From: a virus
Taxonomy: Duplodnaviria > Heunggongvirae > Uroviricota > Caudoviricetes
DNA: 48,404 nucleotides
Reading direction: 5' to 3' (one strand)
Virus record (IMG/VR): IMGVR_UViG_3300045988_155859
In this document: piece after piece, positions 2,666 through 22,984 of the stretch
Layout of the letters: each line of letters starts with the position of its first letter
How positions within the stretch are numbered: position 1 is the first letter of the stretch
Made by a program: the position numbers and the translations under genes
Notes under the pieces: generated by a model
Database searches by the model: none
Told to the model about the DNA's origin: nothing
Seen by the model: the letters and a program-made list of their open reading frames with translations, nothing else

Positions 2666-3319
2666 TTACGCGGCAGTAGTCAGAGCCTCAAGCTGGTTGA
2701 TAATCCCCTGAATAACGTCGTCTGCCTTTTTGCGTGGCGCAACGTATGAGCATTCAATGAGGCTTAAGCCCTTATCCTGAGCTTTGCTCAGAGCTGGCTT
2801 GTGGGGAATGTACTTATCGACAACAAAGTATGGCGTATTAGCTAGGTACTCTTGGGCTTCAATGTAGTCGGCTTCGTTTTCAGCCGCGCCTGAGAACACC
2901 ATGCAAATTTTCTTGATTGGCACACCCTTTTTAACGATGCCGTGAGCTGTGTTAACGGTGGTTTCTAGGTCATCGGTAGAGAATCTGGTTGGCAAAATAA
3001 CCATATCCAGAAATTCAGAGAGCTTCGGTACTGATTCAGATGCGTAGGCACCGCCATCGACGATAACCAGGTCGTATACTTCTGATTCGATGATTTTCTG
3101 GACTTGTGATGGCGTGCCGCACGGCTGCGCCGCGATTGCAGGTTCGATATTGTTGGCCATTCTGCGTTGTACCCAACGCGTTACCGTTCCGTTAAGCACA
3201 TCCATATCGATCAGGCATACATTCCAGCCGGCCTTTGCATAAGCAACTGCTAAAGCACGGGCAATTGTTGATTTGGTTACGCCGCCTTTTCCGTTGAAAA
3301 TACCTACAGAGATAGTCAT
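2666..3319 (-). CDS. parF: ParF-like small ParA-family partition ATPase
   Basis: Deviant Walker A GKGGVTKST near the N-terminus and a length of about 217 aa. The second ATG (3319) has a GGAG RBS; the ORF track start at 3334 does not. Confidence 0.8.
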   Translation of the reverse strand: MTISVGIFNGKGGVTKSTIARALAVAYAKAGWNVCLIDMDVLNGTVTRWVQRRMANNIEPAIAAQPCGTPSQVQKIIESEVYDLVIVDGGAYASESVPKLSEFLDMVILPTRFSTDDLETTVNTAHGIVKKGVPIKKICMVFSGAAENEADYIEAQEYLANTPYFVVDKYIPHKPALSKAQDKGLSLIECSYVAPRKKADDVIQGIINQLEALTTAA

Positions 3320-3340
3320 TTGTCGAGACTCCATGTGTTT

Positions 3341-3444
3341 GGTTATATAATTCTATAAATCTATATTTATAGAACGAGGTAAGCATAACCAACTTTTTGG
3401 CGGATGAAAAGCGTTTTATATAATTATATAAATCTATAATCATG
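3341..3444. repeat. AT-rich iterated motif cluster upstream of parF (candidate centromere/operator)
   Basis: Two blocks, TATATAATTCTATAAATCTATATTTATAGA and TTTTATATAATTATATAAATCTATAATCA, immediately upstream of the parF start. Confidence 0.55.
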
Positions 3445-3469
3445 TAAGCGGGCGTTAGCCCGCTTTCAG

Positions 3470-3844
3470 TCAGAGGTCAGCTATCGTTGATATCAGTTGA
3501 TTTGCTAGCTGTCGCTGTTTACGTGAGAGGGTGAGAGCAGCTTCTGAGCGGTCGCTAAGAGGGGTGTTTTCATCAAGAATCATGAGGCATACAGAAATAA
3601 TAGCCCTGTTATATGCCATCAATGGCTGGCACAGCTTCGATATCGCTGGCACATCGTATTGTAAGGCCGTTTTGAGGCAGACTTTTTGTTCTGATGCCAG
3701 ATGAAGGATAGATTCTATCCAGTCGATATCTTTCTCATTATCAATGATTTGGCATAACATACACTCAATCGCTATGTTCAACGCTTGGATTTCGATTCCA
3801 GCAGTGATCAGAGTTTCGTTTTTATTGGCTGTATGTAATTCCAT
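3470..3844 (-). CDS. Hypothetical protein
   Basis: 124-aa ORF between the partition cassette and cI; operator-like palindrome in its upstream region. Confidence 0.45.
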   Translation of the reverse strand: MELHTANKNETLITAGIEIQALNIAIECMLCQIIDNEKDIDWIESILHLASEQKVCLKTALQYDVPAISKLCQPLMAYNRAIISVCLMILDENTPLSDRSEAALTLSRKQRQLANQLISTIADL

Positions 3845-10131: not shown

Positions 10132-10341
10132 ATGGCTGTTGCCGCAAGTTACACCATGCATCTCTACTGTGATTGTCGTCAGTGTACAAATGGTAAATAT
10201 CAGTCGCCAGACTTCGGTGAGTATATCGGTACGTCATGGGCAGGCTGTGCAAAAGAGGCGCGCAAGGATGGCTGGCGAATAAGCAAAGACAAAACGCGTG
10301 CTTTTGCGCCCGGGCATAAAGTTTTGAGGATTAATAAATGA
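10132..10341 (+). CDS. Hypothetical Cys-rich small protein
   Basis: Start at the internal Met with AAGGAGAG RBS; MAVAASYTMHLYCDCRQC... Confidence 0.4.
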   Translation: MAVAASYTMHLYCDCRQCTNGKYQSPDFGEYIGTSWAGCAKEARKDGWRISKDKTRAFAPGHKVLRINK

Positions 10342-10787
10342 CCACTATTACCAAAGAACGTGCGGAGATTAAATCATTCATCACAGGCTTCCTGAGCGAC
10401 CCGGCGCACGATAACCAATCTTCAAGCAGTCTGCTTGCCAATGTGTTTCGTATCGCACTGGCATCGTTGGAAGCAGAGCCAGTCGCGTGGCGATATCGCT
10501 ACGTGAAAAAAGGCGTTACGGACTCTCAGGGGGAGCCGTGGGTTGGTGACTGGAAATATGTACCGACAAAAGAGGATTGCAACGACAGGCCGAGCTATGA
10601 AATTCAGGCGTTATTCACTCCCCCGCCTGTGCCACTGATACCAGAAGGATTGATTAAAGCAGTGCGCTTCTATGAACAGGTTAAGCGTGAAAATCCGCCA
10701 GTCGAAACCGGAGCATGGAAAGACGCTGTTGACTGGGTTCTCGAAGAGGCTTGTCAGGCTGTAAACATTGGCATCAAAGGAGGGTGA
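10338..10787 (+). CDS. Hypothetical protein, member of the IALASLEAE paralogue family
   Basis: Contains FRIALASLEAEPVAW; related motifs in the 11080 and 11495 ORFs. Confidence 0.45.
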   Translation: MTTITKERAEIKSFITGFLSDPAHDNQSSSSLLANVFRIALASLEAEPVAWRYRYVKKGVTDSQGEPWVGDWKYVPTKEDCNDRPSYEIQALFTPPPVPLIPEGLIKAVRFYEQVKRENPPVETGAWKDAVDWVLEEACQAVNIGIKGG

Positions 10788-10788
10788 T

Positions 10789-11076
10789 ATGGCAACTTTG
10801 CAGGAATTAATCGACCTGACGCCAGAACAGGAAAAAGCGTGGAATCGCCTTGTAAAGGCTGTAAAGGATTTCAGGGCAGCCGGAGGAAAGTTTTATAGCG
10901 TCCTGGACACGCTGAGCGCATACAACGGCGAGCACGTTGCCAGCATTGATAACGATAAGGGCTACCACACTGCAAGCGTCTATATGCCTAGCATTGATGC
11001 GCCAGGGCTAACCAGTTGGGCTGATGATTGGCACGGCATCACGCTGAAAGATGGGGTTGAAGTGGATGAGGACTAA
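10789..11076 (+). CDS. Hypothetical protein
   Basis: Start at the Met following GGAGGGTGATATGG; 95 aa. Confidence 0.4.
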   Translation: MATLQELIDLTPEQEKAWNRLVKAVKDFRAAGGKFYSVLDTLSAYNGEHVASIDNDKGYHTASVYMPSIDAPGLTSWADDWHGITLKDGVEVDED

Positions 11077-11079
11077 CAC

Positions 11080-11493
11080 ATGACTACTTTTACCGACAAA
11101 GAACTGATTAAAGAAATCAAAGAGCGCATAGGCAGCCTGGACGTCCGAGACAATATTGAGCGTCGGGCTTATGAAATTGCTCTGGCATCGCTGGAAGCAG
11201 AGGCAGTTATGTTCTGTATATCAGGACAAAATGTAGATTCAGAAGAACATGTATCAACCAGCAAAGCGGTTGTTGATGCCTGGGTTGAAGAATGGAATCA
11301 GGTTGACGGAAGTCCTGGCGAACCACTGTACAAAACTATGCCACTCTACTATCACGCTGCCTTGCCAGCGCCGGTAGTGCCGGATGAAATGTATTGGCAG
11401 GATGCGCCAGTTGAAGGCAGCAGCAAAGCGGCTGCATACGCTACAGGCTGGAATGCCTGCCGCGCCGCCATGCTTCAGGGGAAAGGGAAGTGA
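11080..11493 (+). CDS. Hypothetical protein, IALASLEAE paralogue
   Basis: Contains AYEIALASLEAEAV. Confidence 0.45.
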   Translation: MTTFTDKELIKEIKERIGSLDVRDNIERRAYEIALASLEAEAVMFCISGQNVDSEEHVSTSKAVVDAWVEEWNQVDGSPGEPLYKTMPLYYHAALPAPVVPDEMYWQDAPVEGSSKAAAYATGWNACRAAMLQGKGK

Positions 11494-11494
11494 T

Positions 11495-11770
11495 ATGGCT
11501 ACTTTTACCAAAGAGCAATTGATTGCCCATATTCGTGAACGTAAGGAAGCGCGCCAGAGAATGTTGGATACGGTAACTATTAACCCCGGATTTCGTGAAT
11601 ATCTTGAAAGAGAGCTTGCTACAGATGAAATTGCACTGGCATCCCTGGCATCTGCACCTGTTGCATGGCTAGTTGGAGGGCGTTTGTTCACAACTGAGAT
11701 AGCTGCGGGGATGTACGCTAGTGAGGTGAGGAAAGCAGTTAAGCCGCTATTCTTTTCTGCACTACTGTGA
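11495..11770 (+). CDS. Hypothetical protein, IALASLEAE paralogue
   Basis: Start at MATFTKEQ after GGGAAGTGATATGG; contains EIALASLASAPVAW. Confidence 0.4.
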   Translation: MATFTKEQLIAHIRERKEARQRMLDTVTINPGFREYLERELATDEIALASLASAPVAWLVGGRLFTTEIAAGMYASEVRKAVKPLFFSALL

Positions 11771-11914
11771 GTATTGTTTTTTTATTGATCGATTAACCAC
11801 ATTTTGAAGGTTTTTTTATGGGGAAACCTTGTTTTAGGTGGTAACTGGGTGTAGTGTTTCATTTAACGTAGTAAAACTGCGTTAAGCGATTACCGCGTAA
11901 TTTGTTGCTTTATG

Positions 11915-11947
11915 AAGCCCTGCCTTTTTCGGCGGGGCTTTTTTTTT
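11915..11947 (+). terminator. Intrinsic terminator immediately upstream of the lysis cassette
   Basis: GAAGCCCTGCC-TTTTTC-GGCGGGGCTT hairpin followed by a run of 9 T; the holin ATG is 14 nt downstream. Confidence 0.7.
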
Positions 11948-11960
11948 AACGAGGATTTCA

Positions 11961-12356
11961 ATGTCAGCAGAACCAATTTCCGGTACGGCCGTTGCTGCTG
12001 GTGGCCTGATGGGTGCCAGCGTTTTTGGTATTGCAACTGGTATTGATTACGGCGTTGTATTCGGGGCATTTGCTGGCGCTGTTTTCTATGTTGCTACAGC
12101 GGTGAATATTAGCCGTCTCAAGCTGATTGGCTATTTCTTTACATCGTTCATTGTTGGAGTGATTGGAGCGCCGTTAGTTGGCTCATTTCTTGCCAAATGG
12201 ACCAGCTACAACGATCGACCTCTTGATGCGCTTGGTGCGGTTATTGTGGCTGCATTGACAATTAAAATCCTCACGTTCGTAAACAGCCAGGATCTCGGTA
12301 GCATCTTTGGAATACTTTCCCGCTTACGTGGAGGGGGTTCAAATGGTAAGCAGTGA
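11961..12356 (+). CDS. Holin-like membrane protein
   Basis: 131 aa with several hydrophobic segments; first gene of a cassette that continues with the endolysin and spanins. Confidence 0.5.
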   Translation: MSAEPISGTAVAAGGLMGASVFGIATGIDYGVVFGAFAGAVFYVATAVNISRLKLIGYFFTSFIVGVIGAPLVGSFLAKWTSYNDRPLDALGAVIVAALTIKILTFVNSQDLGSIFGILSRLRGGGSNGKQ

Positions 12357-12639
12357 CCCGTCAGCACTGATTAATGCGGTGCTTTGCACAGTAATAGTAA
12401 TGGCGCTGATGCTTTATCGACGGAAAGACTCCAGGCATCGTCCATTTGTTTCCTTTCTGGCTTATATCTACGTCATTGTATACGCCAATGTTCCCTTCCG
12501 TTATGTGTTCGGTCTTTATCAAGAATCCCACTGGCTGGTGGTTATTGGAAATCTGATTATCTGCATCGTTGTTCTGTATTTCAGGGGCAATCTGGCGCGG
12601 ATAGTTGACGCATTAGGATTTAATCATGACCAAAGATGA
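12343..12639 (+). CDS. Second small membrane protein (holin or antiholin-like)
   Basis: Start at the internal Met with GGAGGGGG RBS; hydrophobic segments; sits between the holin and the endolysin. Confidence 0.45.
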   Translation: MVSSDPSALINAVLCTVIVMALMLYRRKDSRHRPFVSFLAYIYVIVYANVPFRYVFGLYQESHWLVVIGNLIICIVVLYFRGNLARIVDALGFNHDQR

Positions 12640-13168
12640 GATTTTTAACAGCATTCTTGGAAAAGAGGGCGGCTATGTGGATCACCCTGACGACAAGGGA
12701 GGCCCAACAAAGTGGGGCATTACTCAGAACACTGCCCGTGCTCATGGATACCGTGGCGATATGCGCGATTTAACCCGCGAACAGGCACTAGAAATCCTTG
12801 AGGCTGATTACTGGTACGGACCACGCTTTGATCAGGTGGCCGCATTATCCTCTGATATTGCCGCAGAGCTGTGTGATACCGGTGTGAATATGGGGCCAAC
12901 AGTGGCGTCCAAAATGCTTCAACGCTGGCTGAATGTGTTCAATCTGCGTGGGAAGCTGTATCCCGATTTGGATGCAGATGGACGAATCGGTCCACGTACC
13001 ATTAATGCGCTGCGTGCTTATCTTGGGAATCGGGGAAAAGACGGCGAACGGGTGATGCTGACGTCGCTGAACTGTACGCAGGGCGAACGCTATCTGGAGT
13101 TGGCGGAGAAGCGCGAGGCGAATGAGTCGTTTGTCTACGGCTGGATGAAAGAGCGAGTGGTGGTATGA
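12626..13168 (+). CDS. Endolysin, GH108-type muramidase with peptidoglycan-binding domain
   Basis: N-terminal EGGYVDHPDDKGGPTKWGIT motif characteristic of GH108 lysozymes. Confidence 0.8.
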   Translation: MTKDEIFNSILGKEGGYVDHPDDKGGPTKWGITQNTARAHGYRGDMRDLTREQALEILEADYWYGPRFDQVAALSSDIAAELCDTGVNMGPTVASKMLQRWLNVFNLRGKLYPDLDADGRIGPRTINALRAYLGNRGKDGERVMLTSLNCTQGERYLELAEKREANESFVYGWMKERVVV

Positions 13169-13736: not shown

Positions 13737-13812
13737 GGCCCCTTAGCTTAGTGGTTAGAGCAGGCGACTCATAATCGCACGGTCATCGGTTCAAATCCGG
13801 TAGGGGCCACCA
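13737..13812 (+). tRNA. tRNA with anticodon CAU (Met, or Ile if lysidine-modified)
   Basis: 76 nt folding by hand into a cloverleaf: 7-bp acceptor stem (GGCCCCT/AGGGGCC), D-arm GCTT...GAGC, anticodon loop CTCATAA, T-loop TTCAAAT, encoded CCA end. Confidence 0.8.
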
Positions 13813-14119: not shown

Positions 14120-14707
14120 ATGGAGGCAATTGCATTGTTTAATCTGATTTATGCAGATCCCCCCTGGGAATACAAAGATAAGTGTAAGGATGGGAATCGT
14201 GGAGCTGGTTTTAAGTATCCAACGATGAAAGCTGAGGATATTGCTCGTATTCCTGTCTGGCAGCTTGCTAATCCTGAATCGTGTTTGTTGGCCATGTGGT
14301 GGGTTCCGACTCAGCCAGAAGAAGCGTTGCTGGTGGTGAAAGCATGGGGATTCAGGCTTATGACCATGAAGGGCTTCACATGGAACAAATGTGGTAGCCG
14401 ACAACCAGATAAGCTGGTGATGGGGATGGGGCATATGACTCGTGCAAACAGTGAAGATTGCTTGTTTGCGGTAAAAGGCAAATTGCCGACCCGCCTTGAT
14501 GCGGGGATCATTCAGTCGTTTACATCGCCTCGTCTGGAGCATTCTCGGAAGCCTGATGTGGTTCGTGACAAGCTGGTAAGGCTGTTAGGTGATGTTCCTC
14601 GTATTGAGCTGTTTGCTCGCGGTGATTTACCTGATGGTTGGCATGGCTGGGGCAACCAGTGCAATGGAGGTATCCAGTTGCATGATGCTCTCTGGCAAGT
14701 GGCATAG
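14120..14707 (+). CDS. MT-A70-family DNA N6-adenine methyltransferase
   Basis: IYADPPWEY (DPPW catalytic motif) near the N-terminus; 195 aa. Confidence 0.8.
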   Translation: MEAIALFNLIYADPPWEYKDKCKDGNRGAGFKYPTMKAEDIARIPVWQLANPESCLLAMWWVPTQPEEALLVVKAWGFRLMTMKGFTWNKCGSRQPDKLVMGMGHMTRANSEDCLFAVKGKLPTRLDAGIIQSFTSPRLEHSRKPDVVRDKLVRLLGDVPRIELFARGDLPDGWHGWGNQCNGGIQLHDALWQVA

Positions 14708-15359: not shown

Positions 15360-15659
15360 ATGCCTTCGACAAGCACCAAAAAAGAAATGGCGGTTAGTGA
15401 TGTGCTTTACGCGCTTTCGACTATATGTGACGGAGCAATGATGAGGATGAAAGTCCTCCGTGAAGCATACGGAAAAAGTCACGATGAGGCAGCTAAAGAA
15501 TGCCTGAATGAGATTGTGGACTTCATTGATAACCATCGTTCAGTTATATCGCGTCAACCGACAGAGTCGTCCATCACGATTAGCGCACCGGTTATCAATA
15601 TATCAGTAACTGCGGCGTGTAAATCAGCAGCGGAAGATGATCGTGCTTATGCCGAGTGA
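15360..15659 (+). CDS. Hypothetical protein
   Basis: 99-aa ORF. Confidence 0.4.
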   Translation: MPSTSTKKEMAVSDVLYALSTICDGAMMRMKVLREAYGKSHDEAAKECLNEIVDFIDNHRSVISRQPTESSITISAPVINISVTAACKSAAEDDRAYAE

Positions 15660-15849
15660 TTTGTTCTGGTTTCCGCTTCCAATAAGAGATTTGTTGGTAT
15701 TTCTGGCTGGCGCTTACGTCTGGAGAAAAGCGAAAGATACCTCGTTATCTTTGAGGTTTGTCTTAGCTATATCGGTAGGAACCGCGCTGGGTACGGCGTA
15801 TCTCTTGATATTACTGGAGGTATTCATTGAAAAATGGATAGTTTCATGA
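15637..15849 (+). CDS. Small membrane protein
   Basis: 70 aa with two hydrophobic segments. Confidence 0.35.
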   Translation: MIVLMPSDLFWFPLPIRDLLVFLAGAYVWRKAKDTSLSLRFVLAISVGTALGTAYLLILLEVFIEKWIVS

Positions 15850-15998
15850 ATGGTCTTGGCATTTTTCTGATGGTTGTGGCTGTGTGTTTTTGTATCTCGC
15901 TGGTGGTTATTGCTGGTGTCCTGTGGCGCATCTTAGTGGCGCAGAGAGCTTTTCGGCTTAAGCGGGAGCAAATGCGCCTTGATTTCTATCGAAAGTAA
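15846..15998 (+). CDS. Candidate small membrane protein (50 aa)
   Basis: MNGLGIFLMVVAVCFCISLVVIAGVLW..., overlapping the upstream stop and followed by a terminator; below the ORF-track length cut-off. Confidence 0.25.
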   Translation: MNGLGIFLMVVAVCFCISLVVIAGVLWRILVAQRAFRLKREQMRLDFYRK

Positions 15999-16005
15999 CT
16001 CTTAC

Positions 16006-16034
16006 AGCCTCGCGTGTCGCGGGGCTTTTATTTT
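16006..16034 (+). terminator. Intrinsic terminator
   Basis: AGCCTCGCG-TGT-CGCGGGGCT hairpin followed by TTTTATTTT. Confidence 0.5.
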
Positions 16035-16045
16035 CAGGTGATGTT

Positions 16046-16456
16046 ATGGAAAAGAAAGAAGATAAACCGATTGCCATTGGTGCAGAGTCTGTTCCGTTTA
16101 AGTTTGAATTATCCCAACTGGTAACAATGCGTATCAGTGAAGAGTGGGGAGAAGTTCAAGCCCGTGCTCAGTATGCAAATGGCGAAAACCAGTATTTGAT
16201 TCACTATCAGGCGGCTGATGGTCGTGCTACCACAGAGTGGTTCGGTGAATCGATGTTGATTGCGATGGAAGATGATCGTTATCCAGGCTGCCCTGTTTTT
16301 GCCTGTGTTGATTTGCCAGAAGGCGCGGTACTTGAAGACGACAAAGAAGAATGCTCGTCTGATGGCGAACTTGTCATTACTGGAATCGTTGATGGTAAGC
16401 CGGAATACTCTCGTATTGAGGTAAATAACGGCCGCATCCGTTTGATCCCTGCGTAA
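16046..16456 (+). CDS. Hypothetical protein
   Basis: 136-aa ORF. Confidence 0.45.
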   Translation: MEKKEDKPIAIGAESVPFKFELSQLVTMRISEEWGEVQARAQYANGENQYLIHYQAADGRATTEWFGESMLIAMEDDRYPGCPVFACVDLPEGAVLEDDKEECSSDGELVITGIVDGKPEYSRIEVNNGRIRLIPA

Positions 16457-16690: not shown

Positions 16691-17314
16691 ATGACAAAAC
16701 ATCTTAATGTGGTTTCTTTACCACTTTCTGTGTTGATTGGTTATGAAAAGAACGCTCGCACACACTCCGTGGAGCAGGTAGATCAGATTGTTGCCAGCAT
16801 ACAGGAGTACGGATGGACTAATCCGATCCTGATAGACGAGAACAACGTTGTAATTGCTGGTCATGGTCGAATTGCTGCGGCCACTCAGTTGGGGATGGAT
16901 GATGTTCCCTGCATTGTTCTGGCTGGGCTAACGGAGAATCAGAAGAAGGCATATCGTCTGGCCGACAACCGTATTCCGCTGAATGCTGGTTGGGATGAAG
17001 AGTTGTTAAGCGCGGAGCTTGCAGATCTTGCGGCCGATGATTTTGCTCTGGACTCAATTGGTTTTACTCAGCGCGAACTGGATAACTTATTGAGTGCGGC
17101 GGTCTACGATGACACAGAGGGTATGGATATCCCATTTGAGAAGGATGAGGCCAAATCAGGCGTAAAAGTTCAGTACCTGTCATTTGGAGGTCATAAAATC
17201 CCGGCAACGGATGAGGAAGCGGATCGTTTTGACTGCGCGGTGTCTCGTTATGTTGATGATAATGGTAGCTATATCGGATTTGTATCCGCATTGCTGGCTG
17301 GGGAGGTGTGCTGA
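16691..17314 (+). CDS. ParB/Srx-fold (ParB N-terminal domain) protein, paralogue 1
   Basis: ...NPILIDENNVVIAGHGRIAAA...QKKAYRLADN..., clearly paralogous to the 19981 ORF; no obvious partition-type HTH region. Confidence 0.65.
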   Translation: MTKHLNVVSLPLSVLIGYEKNARTHSVEQVDQIVASIQEYGWTNPILIDENNVVIAGHGRIAAATQLGMDDVPCIVLAGLTENQKKAYRLADNRIPLNAGWDEELLSAELADLAADDFALDSIGFTQRELDNLLSAAVYDDTEGMDIPFEKDEAKSGVKVQYLSFGGHKIPATDEEADRFDCAVSRYVDDNGSYIGFVSALLAGEVC

Positions 17315-18687
17315 TGCTTCACCTGAATTACGACATAACGCACCTACGCGGCGCGGAATATAACCCGCGTTTTATCGGTGAGGATGATCTTGCGAGGCTG
17401 GCGGAAAGCGTCAGGGAGCTGGGGCTTGTGAAGCCATTGATAGTGCGCGGCGATTTGCTGGTGGCGGGACACCAAAGGACGAAGGCGCTACGTAAGTTGG
17501 GAATAACGCGTGCTGCGGTGTATGTGTTGCCCTGTGAAACGACGGTATACGACGAAGTACGGTTTAACCAACTGCATAACGGAACGGATTTTGATAGCGG
17601 AGATGAGCGTTGCAGGGTGTCCGGTCTGGAAGATAAGCATGGTTTTGTTCAGGTATCGGCAAGCCAGATCTCAGGCAATATGCGCGCGAAAATGGCATAT
17701 GTTCGAAAGAACATAGCGGAACTGGTTATCAAGTATGGTCCGTGGGGTGGTTGTGTTGCTACTCAGTCTGGTGAGGTTATTCACTGTGCTCAGTATGCAT
17801 TAGCAGCGAAAATGACGCGCACACCGCTAACGGTGTTTGTGATCCCTGATGTTGAGAAGGAAAAATACCAAAGTTATCTGAATAAAACTTATGGTGTATT
17901 TGAGTATTCTCATCTGGAGAAAACAACATACATCCAGACGTATGCGCAGCTTATGCGGTTGCGTAATGGTGGCAGCCTGAAATCAAACCTGTATGAGTCG
18001 TTGATCCTCCCGATCATTGCCAAGACGCCAAGAGGAATTGATTTTGGTTCGGGGCAGGGAGACTACGCGCGAATGCTCAGGGCAAAGGGATATAACCTGC
18101 ATGATCTCGAGCTTTTCCGCCGTAAGGGCGCTGGAAACACTCTGGATAGGACCGCAACAAACCGGATGATTGATACGCTGGTGGACGACTTAAAAACGCG
18201 AGGGCGTTACGACTACGTGATTTGCGATAGCGTTTTGAACTCGGTCGATAGTGTCGAGGCTGAATGGTCTGTTCTGACGGTTCTGAAAGGCCTGTGTAAA
18301 GCTGGTGGGTCAATATTCTTTTCTGGTCGTAGCCGTGGAGAGCTGGAAACAGTCCTGAAGCAAACACAAGCGGCGAGTTCCAAAAGCCGGCTTTATTTTA
18401 TTGATCATAACGGTTTTACCGCGTTGTACCGGAAGGGGCACTGGTTTTACCAGAAGTTTCACTCTGATGATGAAGTGAAGCAGTTGTGTCGTGTACATGG
18501 TTTCAGGATTAAGCGGTCAATATTCAACTGTAAGAGCTGGTATTTGCACGTTATTAACGATGATTCTCTTCGCTGGGAGAGTCTGGAGAAAGCTGTTCGT
18601 TTTGAGTTTGAGTTGCCGTTGCCTGGTGGTTCAACAATCGGACGATCTGATGATGTGCTGGCGGCTTTCCGGCCGTTGATTAAGTAG
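17308..18687 (+). CDS. ParB/Srx-like N-terminal domain fused to a class I SAM-dependent methyltransferase domain
   Basis: N-terminal ...LIVRGDLLVAGHQRTKALRKLG...; C-terminal GIDFGSGQGDYARML (motif I) and YDYVICDSVLNSV; no DPPY/NPPY motif seen. Confidence 0.6.
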   Translation: MLMLHLNYDITHLRGAEYNPRFIGEDDLARLAESVRELGLVKPLIVRGDLLVAGHQRTKALRKLGITRAAVYVLPCETTVYDEVRFNQLHNGTDFDSGDERCRVSGLEDKHGFVQVSASQISGNMRAKMAYVRKNIAELVIKYGPWGGCVATQSGEVIHCAQYALAAKMTRTPLTVFVIPDVEKEKYQSYLNKTYGVFEYSHLEKTTYIQTYAQLMRLRNGGSLKSNLYESLILPIIAKTPRGIDFGSGQGDYARMLRAKGYNLHDLELFRRKGAGNTLDRTATNRMIDTLVDDLKTRGRYDYVICDSVLNSVDSVEAEWSVLTVLKGLCKAGGSIFFSGRSRGELETVLKQTQAASSKSRLYFIDHNGFTALYRKGHWFYQKFHSDDEVKQLCRVHGFRIKRSIFNCKSWYLHVINDDSLRWESLEKAVRFEFELPLPGGSTIGRSDDVLAAFRPLIK

Positions 18688-18703
18688 TGTGTAGGAGGCG
18701 CTG

Positions 18704-19423
18704 GTGGCTGACAGAATTGAGATAAAGATGGATTTTTCTTCTCAGGATATTCAACGACAACTCCAGCGCCTTGAAGAACGTGAATTGCCATTCGCAATGG
18801 CGCTTGCGGCAACCAGAACGGCAAAGGCTTCTCAGGCTGCGATTAAGAATGAAATTAATCGGGTATTTGACAGGCCCACGCCGTGGATTCAGAACTCTAC
18901 TTACGTTTTGGCCGCAAAGAAGAGTGATCCTACAGCCATTGTGTATGCTCGTGAATGGGGAGGAACGCCAGCCCCTGTAACGTTGACTCCGCAAATCGAA
19001 GGTGGCCAACGACAGTACAAACGCTCAGAAGGGGCGCTAAGGGCTGGTGGATATTTGCCTAACGGCTGGCAGCTTGCTCCTGGTCCCGGCGCAAAGCTGG
19101 ACAAATACGGGAATATTTCGCGGGGGCAATTACAGCAGGTCTTATCTGGCCTAAGAGTTCAGCGAGATGCGCATCAAAATCGCCGTCAGGGCAAGCCTAC
19201 GGAGTTTTTTGTTGTTCGACCTGGTACAAGTAACCCGCTTCAACCAGGCGTCTGGCAGCGCGTTGGGCGGCGTCCTACGTTGATCCTTACGTTTATCCAG
19301 CAACCTAACTATTCGCAGCGTCTTGATTGGCATGGCGTGGCGCTACGTGCTGGTGAGGATGCGTTTGCTGATGAAGTCACAAAGGCTATTGATGACATTC
19401 TTTCTAAGACGTTCTCTCGTTAA
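18704..19423 (+). CDS. Hypothetical protein
   Basis: GTG start with GTAGGAGG RBS; 239 aa. Confidence 0.45.
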   Translation: MADRIEIKMDFSSQDIQRQLQRLEERELPFAMALAATRTAKASQAAIKNEINRVFDRPTPWIQNSTYVLAAKKSDPTAIVYAREWGGTPAPVTLTPQIEGGQRQYKRSEGALRAGGYLPNGWQLAPGPGAKLDKYGNISRGQLQQVLSGLRVQRDAHQNRRQGKPTEFFVVRPGTSNPLQPGVWQRVGRRPTLILTFIQQPNYSQRLDWHGVALRAGEDAFADEVTKAIDDILSKTFSR

Positions 19424-19614
19424 TCATCGTGTGGTTGATGGTGTTGTTATGCAGGGTGTATTCACTGTGTTCTGTAGCGTCGCTCGCTGGCTGTCTGTGG
19501 GTGAGCACGAGCATCGTTTCATCGTCCGGCAGAATTGGGTCCTTCTGGCCAAAAGCGTTGGATGCGGGTCATTCGAACCCCGATGTTCGGCTAGCTAAAC
19601 GTGAAAAAAGTTAG

Positions 19615-19980
19615 GTTAAAAGTTGCGGTAAAAGAAATTTACTCATCTCATTGAAAAATATCGGGAAAACGTGATTTTTTGCTGTATTTGTGCTGGTAAA
19701 AAGAAAGTAGAAAATTTTCTTTTAGATCATCAAGATACGCGCAGATCTTTAACCAATGTGATGTTGTTCTGATAAAAATCGTTATAAATCATGCAAATAC
19801 ATCCAATCTTTTAACCAAAACACCATCGCAAGATCCTTTTTACTTATAAAAACTTAATAAAATCAGATAATTATGCTGGTTTGTGTGATTTTTTATGAGT
19901 AAAAAGATCGTCATTTTTCTCTTTTAGTATCAATAAGTTAAACAGTTTTCTTTAACCTGTTGTGTTATGGTGGTTAAAAA
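19615..19980. promoter_or_regulatory. AT-rich non-coding region with iterated AGATC and GTGATTTTTT motifs (candidate late promoter and/or packaging-site region)
   Basis: 366 bp without a convincing ORF; four GATC sites within 185 bp (19725, 19744, 19832, 19906), each as AGATC; GTGATTTTTT occurs twice; CTTTAACC three times. Confidence 0.4.
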
Positions 19981-20571
19981 ATGACTCTAAAAATCGAATA
20001 TTTACCAGTCGGTAAGCTGCTCAGATATGCCAAAAATTCACGGACTCATTCAGATGAGCAAGTTGAACAGTTGGTGAACAGTATCCGTGAGTTCGGTTTC
20101 ACTAATCCTGTGCTGATCGATGAAAAGAATGAACTGATTGCGGGGCATGGTCGGCTTGCAGCAGCCGAAATTCTGGAAATGGATAAAGTTCCGGCGATTC
20201 GGTTGAGTAACCTTTCTGAAAAACAGAAGAAGGCTTACAGGATTGCAGATAACAAGCTGGCCTTAAATGCTGGCTGGGATATGCAGCTTCTGGCCGAAGA
20301 AGTCAAAGAGTTAATGGATGATGATTTTGATATTGATCTGCTTGGGTTTAATGATGCAGAGCTTGACGAAATGTTAAGCGATGAACAGCCGCAGGAAGAA
20401 GACGATAATTCTTCCCCTGTTGTTCAAATTAAGTACCTGGCTATTGATAAAGAACGTATTCCCGCGACGGATATGGAAATTGCATTGTTGCTGGATGTTT
20501 ATCGTCAGTACCACGACGCGCATGAAACGCATGAGGGATTTGTTCAGTATCTTGCTAATGGTTGCAAGTAA
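19981..20571 (+). CDS. ParB/Srx-fold protein, paralogue 2, immediately upstream of the terminase genes
   Basis: ...NPVLIDEKNELIAGHGRLAAA...QKKAYRIADN..., paralogous to 16691-17314. Confidence 0.65.
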   Translation: MTLKIEYLPVGKLLRYAKNSRTHSDEQVEQLVNSIREFGFTNPVLIDEKNELIAGHGRLAAAEILEMDKVPAIRLSNLSEKQKKAYRIADNKLALNAGWDMQLLAEEVKELMDDDFDIDLLGFNDAELDEMLSDEQPQEEDDNSSPVVQIKYLAIDKERIPATDMEIALLLDVYRQYHDAHETHEGFVQYLANGCK

Positions 20572-21122
20572 TGGCCATCGTCAGTAAGTCAGAGTTTGCC
20601 CGCCGGAAAGGTATTTCTCCGGCAATGGTTACGAAGCTCTGTCGTTCCGGTCGCATTCCAGTGCTGAAAAGCGGCAAGCTGGATTTTGATAAAGCCAGTG
20701 CGGCTTATGAAGCGAGCCGACAGGTTGGTCGTGAGGTATCTGCTGAAAATGGAAAAAGAGGGCATGGGATATCTTCGGAACAACCAGAGTTACCCGCTGA
20801 TGATGCCGGATTAGCTGGTGGTACTTCCGGTGTTGCGGTGCAATTCAACAAGGCTAAGACCGCAGAAAAAATTTATCAGGCAAAGCTGAAACGCCTTGAA
20901 TTTGAAGAAAAGGAAGGCTCTCTCATCGCTAAAGATGCGGTCAGGGATGATGCATTTCTGGCAGCTAATGAATTGCGTAGCCGCTTATTTAGTATTGCTC
21001 CAAGAGCAGCTCCCCGTTGTGAAGGCAAAACAGCCAGGGAGATCGAGCGCATTATTGAAGACGAGATTAATTTTGCGCTTCAGGCGCTCCAGGAATCCCG
21101 ATTTATTAAGCAGGAAGAATAA
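20571..21122 (+). CDS. Terminase small subunit (lambda Nu1-like)
   Basis: N-terminal HTH-like SKSEFARRKGISPAMVTKLCRSGRIPV; directly upstream of the large subunit; ATG at 20571 preferred over the upstream TTG. Confidence 0.7.
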   Translation: MAIVSKSEFARRKGISPAMVTKLCRSGRIPVLKSGKLDFDKASAAYEASRQVGREVSAENGKRGHGISSEQPELPADDAGLAGGTSGVAVQFNKAKTAEKIYQAKLKRLEFEEKEGSLIAKDAVRDDAFLAANELRSRLFSIAPRAAPRCEGKTAREIERIIEDEINFALQALQESRFIKQEE

Positions 21123-21127
21123 ACCTC

Positions 21128-22984
21128 ATGGGCGAAACAGTATGGAGCACCGCTTTTTTCCGTGCGCTTCGCCCTAAATCACGGCTAACTGTTTCCGAAT
21201 GGGCTGATAAGTATCGTCATGTAGCGCCGGGAACGTCTCCAGAGCCAGGGCCGTGGCGTACAAGCCGAGTGCCATATTTGCGTGAACCAATGGATGTTAT
21301 TGGTGACGCTGATACAGAAACAGTAGTGATGCAATGTAGCTCGCAAATTGGTAAATCCGAATTACAGCTAAATGTTATGGGTTACTTTGCAGATCAGGAG
21401 CCATCTCCTCAGTTGATGATTTATCCAACGGTAGAGGCGGCTGAGGCTTTTTCAAAAGAGCGTATTGATCCGACGTTCAAATATTCCCCTGGTTTGAAAC
21501 ACAAGCTGCATGAAGGGAAAGAGGGGCGCGGTGCAGCCAAAAAGTCCAGCACGACTATACGTATGAAGCATTACGCTGGTGGATATATAGCACTTGTTGG
21601 TGCTAATTCCCCAGCAGGTCTTGCATCCAGGCCAATTCGAATACTGTTAGCTGATGAGATTGATCGTTACGGTGTGACGCAGGAGGGCGACCCACTAAAA
21701 CTAGGTATTCAGCGTACTACCAACTTTCATAATCGTAAGAAAGTTTTTGTTTCTACTCCTGTTTTGGAGGAAACAAGCAAAATCCACAAGTGGTTTAAGC
21801 TCTCCGATCAGCGTTACTACCATGTTCCTTGCCCATGTTGTGGCACCATGCAGGTGATGAAATGGTCGCAAGTCAGATGGGATAAGAGCGATTCAGGTGA
21901 GGCGTTACCGGAAACGGCCAGATATGAGTGCTGTGAGTGCGGCGGGATTATGCGCGGATCTGGTAAACCAGACGTTGATTGGTTGGCGAAGGGGGTATGG
22001 ATAGCTGAACATACTGGAGTTAAAGGTATTGTTGGTTTTCATATTAACAGTCTTTACTCCCCGTGGGTTGCATTGTCAGAGCTGGTTGAAGAATTTACGG
22101 AAGCAACCAGAAACCGCGATAAAAATGGATTAATGGAGTTTATTAACCTTAAGCTGGGTGAGCCATGGAAAGAGGATGCTAAAGACGATATCGATCCTGA
22201 ATACTTGTTGCAACGCAGAATAAGGTTTGAAGAGTTTTTACCAGATGATGTTTTATTGTTAAGTGCTGGTGTTGACGTACAGGACACGTATTTAGTTTGT
22301 GAATTGGTCGGTTGGGGAAAAGGTAAGGAGTCATGGGGGATAGAATATAAAATATTCCCAGGTGATCCCGCACAAGATGTTGTCTGGAAACAACTTGATG
22401 AATACTTACTCCGTAGCTGGTCATTCCGTGACGGTCGAAAATTACAGATTTCTTCCGTTTGTATTGACTCTGGTGGGCATTTTACGACAGAGGTATATCG
22501 CTTTACTAAGCCGAGAGAATCAAGGCGAATATACTCTATCAGGGGGCGTGGTGGGGTAGGTTTACCATTTATAGGAAAGCCAAGTAATAATAACCGTGTG
22601 GGTGCTATGTTGTTTAATTTGGGGGTTGATGATGGTAAAGGGACCATCATGGCAAGAATTAAACTACATGATCCTGGTCCTGGTTATATGCATTTCCCAT
22701 TAGATTCTGACAGAGGATATGATACCGAATACTTTAAAGGATTATTATCAGAGAAAAAAATATTTGAATATAAAAATGGGCAGACAAAAGAAAAGTGGGT
22801 GAAAGTCTACGAGCGTAACGAGCCTCTTGATTGCCGTAACTATGCAACTGCCGCGATGGAAATTCTGAACCCTAATTTTAACTGGCTTGCCGAACAGGAA
22901 ATGCGAGGTAATGTGTATGTGCAGAACTCGTCAGGTATACGTAGAAGACGCCGTAGAGTTATAAGTAAAGGCGTAACCATATAG
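21128..22984 (+). CDS. Terminase large subunit (lambda gpA-like)
   Basis: 618 aa; N-terminal VSEWADKYRHV...PGPWRTSRVPYLREPMD pattern as in gpA-type terminases; ATPase and nuclease-length regions. Confidence 0.85.
   Translation: MGETVWSTAFFRALRPKSRLTVSEWADKYRHVAPGTSPEPGPWRTSRVPYLREPMDVIGDADTETVVMQCSSQIGKSELQLNVMGYFADQEPSPQLMIYPTVEAAEAFSKERIDPTFKYSPGLKHKLHEGKEGRGAAKKSSTTIRMKHYAGGYIALVGANSPAGLASRPIRILLADEIDRYGVTQEGDPLKLGIQRTTNFHNRKKVFVSTPVLEETSKIHKWFKLSDQRYYHVPCPCCGTMQVMKWSQVRWDKSDSGEALPETARYECCECGGIMRGSGKPDVDWLAKGVWIAEHTGVKGIVGFHINSLYSPWVALSELVEEFTEATRNRDKNGLMEFINLKLGEPWKEDAKDDIDPEYLLQRRIRFEEFLPDDVLLLSAGVDVQDTYLVCELVGWGKGKESWGIEYKIFPGDPAQDVVWKQLDEYLLRSWSFRDGRKLQISSVCIDSGGHFTTEVYRFTKPRESRRIYSIRGRGGVGLPFIGKPSNNNRVGAMLFNLGVDDGKGTIMARIKLHDPGPGYMHFPLDSDRGYDTEYFKGLLSEKKIFEYKNGQTKEKWVKVYERNEPLDCRNYATAAMEILNPNFNWLAEQEMRGNVYVQNSSGIRRRRRRVISKGVTI

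Follow-up and report, generated by a model that had tools for sequence, protein, structure and literature searches.

ParB-fold proteins that act outside chromosome segregation have only now come under experiment, with a survey of the fold in 2025 and the first ParB-dependent DNA-modifying enzyme in 2026. Iyer et al. named 'ParB-terminase large subunit loci' in phages and predicted that the methylases encoded there modify DNA as part of packaging (quoted in PMC4738411). The ParB-CTPase fold survey of Kaljevic et al. (PNAS 2025, PMC12704722) lists fusions to N6N4-Mtase and to Methyltransf_23 domains as phage-enriched and of unknown role, and includes ParB folds that bind ATP or GTP; one of these, GA118, binds ATP rather than CTP and has the Box II sequence GHQRTKA (Dataset S6 of the survey). 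O'Toole et al. (PNAS 2026, PMC13229309) report that the solo phage protein ParB176 is required for its cognate thymine dioxygenase, 5mYOX176, to act on double-stranded DNA. In ParB176 a nucleotide-binding domain (NBD) is followed by a helix-helix segment, then a linker, then a C-terminal domain, and no DNA-binding domain is obvious; ParBs (27%) and terminases (19%) are frequent neighbours of 5mYOX-type enzymes (PMC13229309). Here we describe a locus of related composition in a tailed virus, IMG/VR record IMGVR_UViG_3300045988_155859, whose whole sequence of 48,404 nucleotides (nt) is referred to as the window. Between positions 16,691 and 20,571 it encodes two solo ParB-type proteins, ParB-1 and ParB-2, and a third ParB copy fused to a class I S-adenosylmethionine (SAM) methyltransferase, here called the fusion (Table 1).

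The initial annotation treated the three genes as a single cluster whose role in packaging, DNA modification or anti-defence was open. Gene order and distribution instead point to two units, a portable cassette of ParB-1 and the fusion, and ParB-2 with the terminase genes terS and terL. We give about even weight to the reading that ParB-1 and the fusion constitute a late-expressed, ParB-assisted DNA-modification cassette and that ParB-2 is a separate core unit of the lineage associated with TerS. The domain content, folds, motifs, gene coupling, synteny, presence and absence among relatives and purifying selection on which this reading draws are described below; it would have ParB-1 interact with the enzyme, the enzyme act on DNA, the cassette be expressed late and ParB-2 play a part of its own. 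The fusion architecture is already catalogued, both as PHROG 5475 and in the 2025 survey (PMC12704722), and the general idea of a ParB gene beside a terminase gene and of ParB-assisted DNA modification has been published, so the system is not categorically new; the enzyme class and the tandem ParB folds are without a studied counterpart.

The observation that started this analysis is real and well above chance. All three open reading frames (ORFs) lie on the plus strand where they had been placed, and the two solo proteins, judged roughly half identical by eye, share 48% identity over 201 amino acids (aa; E = 4e-62). Against the Pfam ParB_N model (PF02195, cut-off 26.3 bits) ParB-2 passes at 33.7 bits and ParB-1 (23.9 bits) and the fusion (24.3 bits) fall about 2 bits short, but the PHROG profiles are unambiguous for all three. 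Each protein keeps the nucleotide-binding boxes N-x-R, GH(G/Q)R and (D/Q)N, which in ParB-1 read N-x-R, GHGR and ADN. A conservation profile built from 63 solo relatives of ParB-1 and ParB-2 gives a layout of a conserved NBD (residues 1-95), a helix-helix segment (approximately 96-135), an acidic linker that varies and a C-terminal domain (approximately 160-200) that is again conserved; a scan of ParB-1 detected no DNA-binding domain. The ratio of nonsynonymous to synonymous substitution rates (dN/dS) is 0.05-0.07 for ParB-1; for ParB-2, dN is 0.11-0.13 with dS saturated, relatives lacking the cassette included. A protein-database search with ParB-2 returned only sequences 98-100% identical to it. 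We also considered a recent duplication within the lineage as the source of the two solo genes and rejected it, the 48% that separates them being as distant as ParB-1 is from the partner ParBs of the next fusion lineages (48-53%).

A part for the ParB proteins in partition of the phage-plasmid, or in silencing its transcription over long range as KorB or VirB do, is most improbable. As first described, none of the three has a helix-turn-helix (HTH) family by Pfam, NCBIfam or PHROGs, or any other parS-binding domain; the solo proteins hold only about 100 residues past the N domain, and the partition model TIGR00180 is unmatched, with 29.8, 16.4 and 40.0 bits for the three proteins against a cut-off of 58.45. 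No parA lies in an operon with the ParB genes. The window does encode a ParA-type ATPase, but about 13 kb away on the minus strand (2666-3334) and with its own 81-aa partner encoded downstream; this partner has no Pfam match and is at most a putative ParG in the earlier assignment of partition to ParF and ParG. The same ParB-1/fusion pair is moreover found in many viral contigs and integrated prophages of diverse bacteria, and relatives of the window without the pair are similar in contig size, which suggests that the cassette is dispensable for the element.

The fusion matches phrog_5475 over residues 3-459 (E = 4e-265) and has more than 716 homologues, from Enterobacteria to Bradyrhizobium, most of which carry both PF02195 and PF13489. 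Of its two candidate start codons the ATG is likelier than the GTG, in agreement with the PGAP annotation of a 99% identical plasmid; residues are numbered here from the GTG. An exhaustive search with residues 78-459 gives 205 clusters at 50% identity (E <= 1e-30), with full-length members of 450-490 aa. The three-part architecture is fixed, because across the clusters the match always begins at approximately residue 76-82. Among 57 aligned homologues 64 positions are invariant, and dN/dS is 0.03. An AlphaFold2 model has a mean predicted local distance difference test score (pLDDT) of 94.3 and a predicted template modelling score (pTM) of 0.90.

In the first domain, a ParB N-type fold, all three nucleotide boxes are invariant (N19-P-R21; A53-G54-H-Q-R57-T-K-A; F86-N-Q..N91), and residues 1-74 are 28% identical to ParB-1 (E = 2e-6). 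The second domain is cryptic. The secondary-structure pattern of residues 4-73 recurs in the model at residues 112-179, so that the fusion contains a further, degenerate ParB/Srx fold, placed after the N-terminal ParB domain and ahead of the methyltransferase; in it the phosphate-binding arginine of GxxR is gone, and an invariant H159..Q162-Y163 stands in its place. The count of three ParB/Srx copies therefore holds for the ORFs, and the folds number four. An internal duplication at the sequence level was rejected, as hhalign of residues 1-100 against 101-225 gives a probability of 0.2%; the second fold is visible by structure alone.

The C-terminal half matches Methyltransf_23 (PF13489) at 32.6 bits (cut-off 27), and generic class I models are the only ones that match it. 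It has the features of a class I SAM fold, with motif I (DFGSGQG) at residues 245-251 and E268 after strand 2, in line with the fused class I methyltransferase that had been proposed. Invariant positions are D245-F-G-x-G249, E268, D307-x-V-x-N-S after strand 4, R341, F364-x-D366 and R375-x-G-x-W379..Q382..H385. There is no PP dipeptide anywhere in the fusion and hence no (D/N/S)PP(Y/F/W) motif, the region after strand 4 reading D307-S-V-L-N-S, and Pfam gives no match to N6_N4_Mtase, MethyltransfD12 or MT-A70. Neither is there a match to PF00145, a PCQ or ENV motif or a conserved catalytic Pro-Cys, C306 not being conserved among homologues. Judged from these active-site motifs, the usual N6-adenine/N4-cytosine and C5-cytosine mechanisms are excluded, which bears out and extends the initial suspicion that this is no conventional adenine or N4-cytosine methylase. 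Sequence comparison of the fusion with solved structures returned generic ParB and methyltransferase matches only (E > 1e-3). We looked for a match of the C-terminal domain to a characterised DNA methylase family, and of the solo paralogues to a defined packaging factor, and found none.

The relatives of ParB-1 and ParB-2 give an indication of what the solo proteins may do. The NBD and helix-helix part of both shares 60-63% identity with the N-terminal end of a ParB-N6_N4 DNA methylase of 412 aa (the first 132 residues of which are 63% identical to ParB-2), encoded between terL and a gpW-like gene (L103:7861-9099 and L108:7861-9099) in phages with TerL 55-56% identical. Among the closest relatives in viral contigs (n = 65), 34 are N6_N4 methylase fusions and the rest are solo proteins of 190-275 aa. 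Downstream of 27 non-redundant solo relatives (among loci L192-L267), the next gene encodes a TET-associated glycosyltransferase (TAGT) in seven, a Mom-family protein in six, an N6/N4 methylase in three, a GNAT acetyltransferase in three, and a C5 methylase, a D12 adenine methylase and a Methyltransf_23 fusion in one each; terS is the next gene only in the window's own clade. By strong guilt by association, the solo ParBs of this subfamily would partner enzymes of many chemistries that modify DNA bases after replication. Adjacency to an enzyme gene holds for ParB-1 (52 of 58 loci) but not for ParB-2, whose neighbour is terS. The literature searched contains no mention of a dependence of Mom-type or TAGT enzymes on ParB. 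DNA modification is favoured over packaging for ParB-1 and the fusion because the neighbours of the subfamily are overwhelmingly DNA base-modifying enzymes and because a ParB-activated enzyme of this kind has been described (PMC13229309), and the role of the pair is in this respect less open than it had seemed.

The pairing of ParB-1 with the fusion is widespread. We retrieved 77 viral loci encoding fusion homologues (32-99% identity). Upstream sequence sufficed for the comparison in 58 of them, and 52 of these 58 have a gene for a solo ParB of about 200 aa whose end lies within 500 nt upstream of the fusion gene; in 46 the two genes overlap or abut. In the window the ParB-1 stop codon overlaps the start codon of the fusion in a TGATG junction, and the two genes form a translationally coupled pair. 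Identity of the partner ParB tracks that of the fusion (Spearman 0.77), a correlation that is expected for linked genes and shows only that the two travel together. The largest ORF within 4.5 kb downstream of the fusion belongs to a large-terminase family in approximately 33 of the 58 loci (GpA, 19; Terminase_6, 7; TerL_ATPase, 4; Terminase_3, 2; T7-type, 1), and portal, Mu-F or capsid families provide a further 17 family matches. By synteny, the pair thus lies close to packaging genes across at least four unrelated terminase families.

Among close relatives of the window, by comparison, the pair comes and goes. We examined 23 loci with TerL 76-100% identical and the upstream region available. 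Besides the window, four of these carry ParB-1 and the fusion (L081 is the same contig as L004), and in 18 the phrog_1935 gene is followed directly by the phrog_1924 gene, with the cassette absent. One relative, L082, has a 62-aa ORF (3363-3551) just upstream of its phrog_1924 gene that is 87% identical to the C-terminal end of the fusion, the rest of the cassette being absent, and this looks like a deletion scar. A relative without the cassette has endolysin and spanin genes upstream and no methylase. Since 18 of these 23 relatives lack the pair although their terminase is the same, ParB-1 and the fusion are a dispensable, mobile accessory cassette, under strong purifying selection where present. 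The phrog_1924 gene is outside the cassette, because relatives without ParB-1 and the fusion retain it. Its product is labelled 'minor tail protein', although it is encoded at the far genome end from the tail genes and has no Pfam match, and the label may be unreliable.

Such a patchy distribution might also be expected of a prophage defence or exclusion module acting in the lysogen, with an orphan or restriction-modification-like methylase and a ParB regulator, and the ParB-1/fusion stretch is indeed carried as a plasmid prophage by 71 of 5,426 complete E. coli genomes (75 of its 76 places being plasmid-borne). PADLOC gives a single match, to its MTase_II ('Type II methyltransferase') model, but this covers approximately positions 8-158 of 436, corresponding to the ParB-like N-terminal part, and so spans the shared ParB module only. 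No nuclease or effector partner is encoded with the pair. The pair is encoded between the lysis genes and the cohesive-end site (cos), on the strand of the late genes, with no promoter-like site of its own detected; a promoter and terminator scan around it was uninformative, with 3 promoter-like sites against 10.8 expected by chance. We consider a defence module very unlikely.

A third gene accompanies the fusion in much of the family. In about 50 of the 77 loci (L013:1610-2041 and others among L013-L077) a Cys-rich protein of approximately 143 aa is encoded right beside the fusion, its gene usually overlapping the stop codon of the fusion and sometimes convergent with it. Comparison with Pfam, PHROG and PDB gave no match to this family, in which the pattern W..K, HCxxC, YxCGV, NxH and CRN is conserved. 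The protein may be a third, perhaps metal-binding, subunit, in which case most of the fusion family may constitute a three-gene system of which the version in the window is reduced.

ParB-2 behaves differently. A homologue lies upstream of terS and terL in all 23 relatives, with or without the cassette, and in the window the ParB-2 stop codon overlaps the terS start codon (TAATG). By this synteny ParB-2 is a core gene of the packaging module, coupled to terS. It is split into two ORFs in L086 (4859-5450) and L101 (3461-4061); these could reflect a frameshift or a sequencing error, and occasional loss of function is possible. The records of three isolated Yersinia phages end at the equivalent of window position 19566 or 19578 and start at 19567 or 19579, an offset of 12 nt, from which we place a putative cosN with a lambda-like cohesive end between ParB-2 and the phrog_1924 gene, consistent with the GpA-type terminase. 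Beyond it, about 390 bp (19590-19980) are rich in A+T and contain three 15-nt direct repeats at 19688, 19764 and 19838, spaced by 74-76 nt, that may be TerS-binding sites. Given this position of cos, the packaged genome would have ParB-1 and the fusion near its right end and ParB-2 as the first gene at its left end. ParB-2 probably acts with TerS at cos, or else is a general ParB cofactor. More speculatively, ParB-2 together with a TerS that bears an HTH recalls the KorB-KorA arrangement discussed by O'Toole et al. (PMC13229309).

The genes thus surround cos, terS and terL, and all three ParB proteins could be packaging accessory factors, nucleotide-regulated proteins that nick DNA or bind cos and so aid the terminase in recognising or cutting concatemers, much as HNH proteins assist HK97-type terminases. 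In modification loci terminases and ParB are found together, ParB-2 is universal in the lineage and coupled to terS, and the B. cereus ParB-methylase Bce_0392 has a ParB domain that is reported to nick DNA (cited in PMC5512222). Applied to all three proteins, however, this explanation is unlikely. The 18 relatives that lack ParB-1 and the fusion have terminases 77-91% identical, so the pair is not needed for packaging; elsewhere the TerL genes downstream of the pair belong to at least four unrelated families; the GpA-type TerL has a nuclease domain of its own; and the methyltransferase would be left without a function. For ParB-2 alone a packaging role is a reasonable and live option.

For ParB-1 and the fusion we therefore retain ParB-assisted DNA modification, and propose the following scheme. 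ParB-1 would activate the enzyme encoded directly downstream, or load it onto DNA, the N domain of ParB-1 and the ParB N domain of the enzyme pairing in a nucleotide-dependent manner on the double strand. Residues 54-60 of the fusion (GHQRTKA) are identical to Box II of the ATP binder GA118, which, judged by the order of constructs in the survey, is probably a Methyltransf_23 fusion as well (PMC12704722), and the N-terminal ParB fold of the fusion probably binds ATP. Once replicated, phage DNA would be marked by the methyltransferase ahead of packaging, an atom being methylated by a chemistry other than that giving N6-methyladenine (m6A), N4-methylcytosine (m4C) or 5-methylcytosine (m5C), and marked progeny DNA would be protected against host nucleases. 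A more specific version, which we put forward as a tentative possibility, is that the pair installs a nucleic-acid methylation new to phage DNA (not m6A, m4C or m5C) by means of a Trm9-like class I methyltransferase that an ATP-dependent heteromeric ParB clamp loads or switches on, with the Cys-rich protein as a third subunit in most lineages.

Several observations weigh against DNA modification by the pair. The methyltransferase is unlike known DNA methylases and has no recognisable target-recognition domain, and the structures most similar to it belong to enzymes acting on tRNA, small molecules or lipids, the nearest being Trm9 and small-molecule methyltransferases. Neither the window nor the enterobacterial clade L001-L012 has the Cys-rich third gene, and the version in the window may be incomplete or work differently. 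In the ParB176 system, mutations of the ParB nucleotide-binding residues did not abolish activation of the dioxygenase (PMC13229309), so that a nucleotide-gated clamp is not established even there. For the second unit, the link between ParB-2 and TerS consists of gene order and the overlap of start and stop codons.

Alternatively, the methyltransferase might act off DNA, on a host or phage tRNA, a protein (such as a virion or terminase component), a nucleotide or a small molecule, with the ParB/Srx folds serving as ATP-binding or kinase-like modules (compare sulfiredoxin and serine kinase) and the whole directed to host takeover or anti-defence. The lack of a DPPY or PCQ motif, the binding of ATP and not CTP by GA118 with its identical Box II, the Trm9-like structural neighbours, the kinase-like relatives of the ParB/Srx fold and the presence of a phage tRNA gene upstream all agree with a substrate other than DNA. 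Similarity of class I methyltransferase folds is, however, a poor predictor of substrate; in the great majority of the loci sampled, the solo ParBs of the subfamily have a DNA base-modifying enzyme as neighbour or fusion partner, and the position near the packaging genes is held across unrelated terminase families. On balance we regard a non-DNA substrate as rather unlikely, and DNA modification remains the preferred reading for the pair.

The window is a complete or near-complete phage-plasmid that encodes an IncFII RepA elsewhere. Its segment at 16.0-21.2 kb has matches in 62 PLSDB plasmids and shares 99.4% identity with the plasmid (48,488 bp) of E. coli ATCC 25922, a standard laboratory strain; the isolated Yersinia phages vB_YpM_39, 41 and 44 match the segment at 98-99% over the 60-68% of its length that precedes the end of each record. 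In the PGAP annotation of the ATCC 25922 plasmid, one strand carries early genes, holins and endolysin, a tRNA, an MT-A70 methylase and small ORFs, followed by a ParB/Srx gene, a 'ParB N-terminal domain protein', a hypothetical gene, a second ParB/Srx gene, terS, terL, portal and head genes and a P2-like tail. The tRNA gene, which lies about 3 kb upstream of the cassette in the window (13737-13812) and has a CAT anticodon, is called tRNA-Met by ARAGORN, and PGAP labels the identical tRNA of the plasmid tRNA-Ile, a reading that would follow lysidine modification. In 2-kb bins the G+C content is 0.46-0.49 over 1-22 kb (replication, lysis and the ParB region) and 0.37-0.43 over 22-38 kb (head and tail), and this drop suggests that the two halves have mosaic origins.

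Among other features, the MT-A70 methylase of the window probably has no connection with the ParB genes: of 79 loci with homologues of it, 74 have no gene like ParB-1 or ParB-2 in their flanks. Such homologues, at 75-79% identity, abound in other viral contigs (585 matches). A pairing of this methylase with ParB-2 was considered on account of PHROG 21315, the N-terminal part of which is matched by ParB-1 and ParB-2 and the C-terminal part by the MT-A70 protein, and was rejected: besides these 74 loci, relatives that carry ParB-2 have no MT-A70 gene in the syntenic position. In the ATCC 25922 plasmid (L078, NZ_CP009073.1), we note that opposed tail-fibre assembly genes are annotated beside a recombinase at 10150-12887, a candidate invertible host-range segment, and that a RelE/ParE toxin-antitoxin pair is annotated at 15512-16158.

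Table 1. Features of the window around the ParB genes and the terminase genes, in window coordinates.
Feature	Coordinates	Strand	Evidence or remark
MT-A70-family DNA methyltransferase	14120..14707	+	Pfam MT-A70 E = 3e-23; same late region
ParB-1, solo ParB-type protein, 207 aa	16691..17314	+	phrog_620 E = 4e-74; Pfam ParB_N
Tri-domain fusion enzyme (ParB fold, degenerate ParB/Srx fold, class I SAM methyltransferase)	17314..18687 (457 aa, ATG) or 17308..18687 (459 aa, GTG)	+	phrog_5475
Fusion domain 1, ParB N-type fold, residues 1 to ~100	17308..17607	+	alignment of homologues; HMMER alignments to Spo0J/ParB structures
Fusion domain 2, cryptic degenerate ParB/Srx fold, residues ~105-192	17620..17892	+	
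Fusion domain 3, divergent class I SAM methyltransferase, residues ~229-459	17992..18684	+	
phrog_1924 gene, 239 aa, labelled 'minor tail protein'	18704..19423	+	between fusion and cos
Putative cohesive-end site cosN, GGTCATTCGAAC	19567..19578	.	Yersinia phage record ends
ParB-2, solo ParB-type protein, 196 aa	19981..20571	+	phrog_620 E = 5e-75; Pfam ParB_N 33.7 bits
Small terminase TerS, HTH-like N terminus	20571..21122	+	phrog_57 E = 7e-42; weak AbiEi_4 and Cox-like HTH matches
Large terminase, lambda GpA type	21128..22984	+	100% identical protein in L004: GpA_ATPase E = 7e-76, GpA_nuclease E = 1e-84

The locus offers an unusual trio of properties: a ParB-type protein paired with an enzyme that bears two more ParB folds, a methyltransferase without the usual DNA-methylase motifs, and natural presence and absence of the cassette among otherwise near-identical phages. 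If the reading proposed here is true, the pair would provide a new DNA mark or a new target for anti-defence methylation; on its more specific, clamp-based version, ParB cofactors would be a general, modular means of delivering oxidation, glycosylation, Mom-type acylation and methylation to double-stranded phage DNA before packaging. The pairing of ParB-2 with terS could in turn show an involvement of the ParB fold in cos recognition.

Among known systems, canonical ParB/Spo0J, Noc and KorB CTP clamps differ from the proteins of the window. Both share the fold of the N domain and the positions of Boxes I-III, but in the window Box II is GHGR or GHQR in place of GERR, there is no HTH, ParA-binding motif, parA neighbour or parS, and the proteins are far shorter or fused to an enzyme. 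From Trm9-type and small-molecule class I methyltransferases the fusion differs in that identity is only 10-19%, that it has its own conserved substrate-side residues (R341, F364-x-D366 and R375-x-G-x-W379..Q382..H385), and that no Trm112 homologue is present here. ParB-N6_N4 fusions (PHROG 498; Bce_0392; the plasmid M.EcoGIX/M.BceJIII type) are related to the solo proteins, which match phrog_498 at E = 1e-50 to 1e-52, but ParB-1 and ParB-2 end in a small C-terminal domain and not a methylase, and the fusion has a distant ParB domain (28%) and a methyltransferase class without DPPY.

As in the predicted ParB-terminase loci, genes for ParB-domain proteins adjoin terminase genes in phages and prophages; the prediction, as cited in PMC4738411, concerns N6-adenine methylases, whereas the enzyme here is of another catalytic class and one ParB copy has no adjacent enzyme. 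With the ParB-CTPase/Methyltransf_23 fusions of the 2025 survey (PHROG 5475, function unknown) the fusion shares the PF02195 and PF13489 architecture and a full-length phrog_5475 match, but the available part of the survey describes no second ParB/Srx fold, obligate solo-ParB neighbour or Cys-rich third gene, and assigns no substrate (PMC12704722). In the ParB176/5mYOX176 system the partner is an Fe/2-oxoglutarate dioxygenase, whereas here it is a SAM methyltransferase with two ParB-type folds of its own, and the window has no TET/JBP gene; the conservation profile of ParB-1 and ParB-2 suggests the four-part layout described for ParB176, and in both systems a solo ParB is encoded beside an enzyme, here a putative DNA-modifying one, often near terminase genes.

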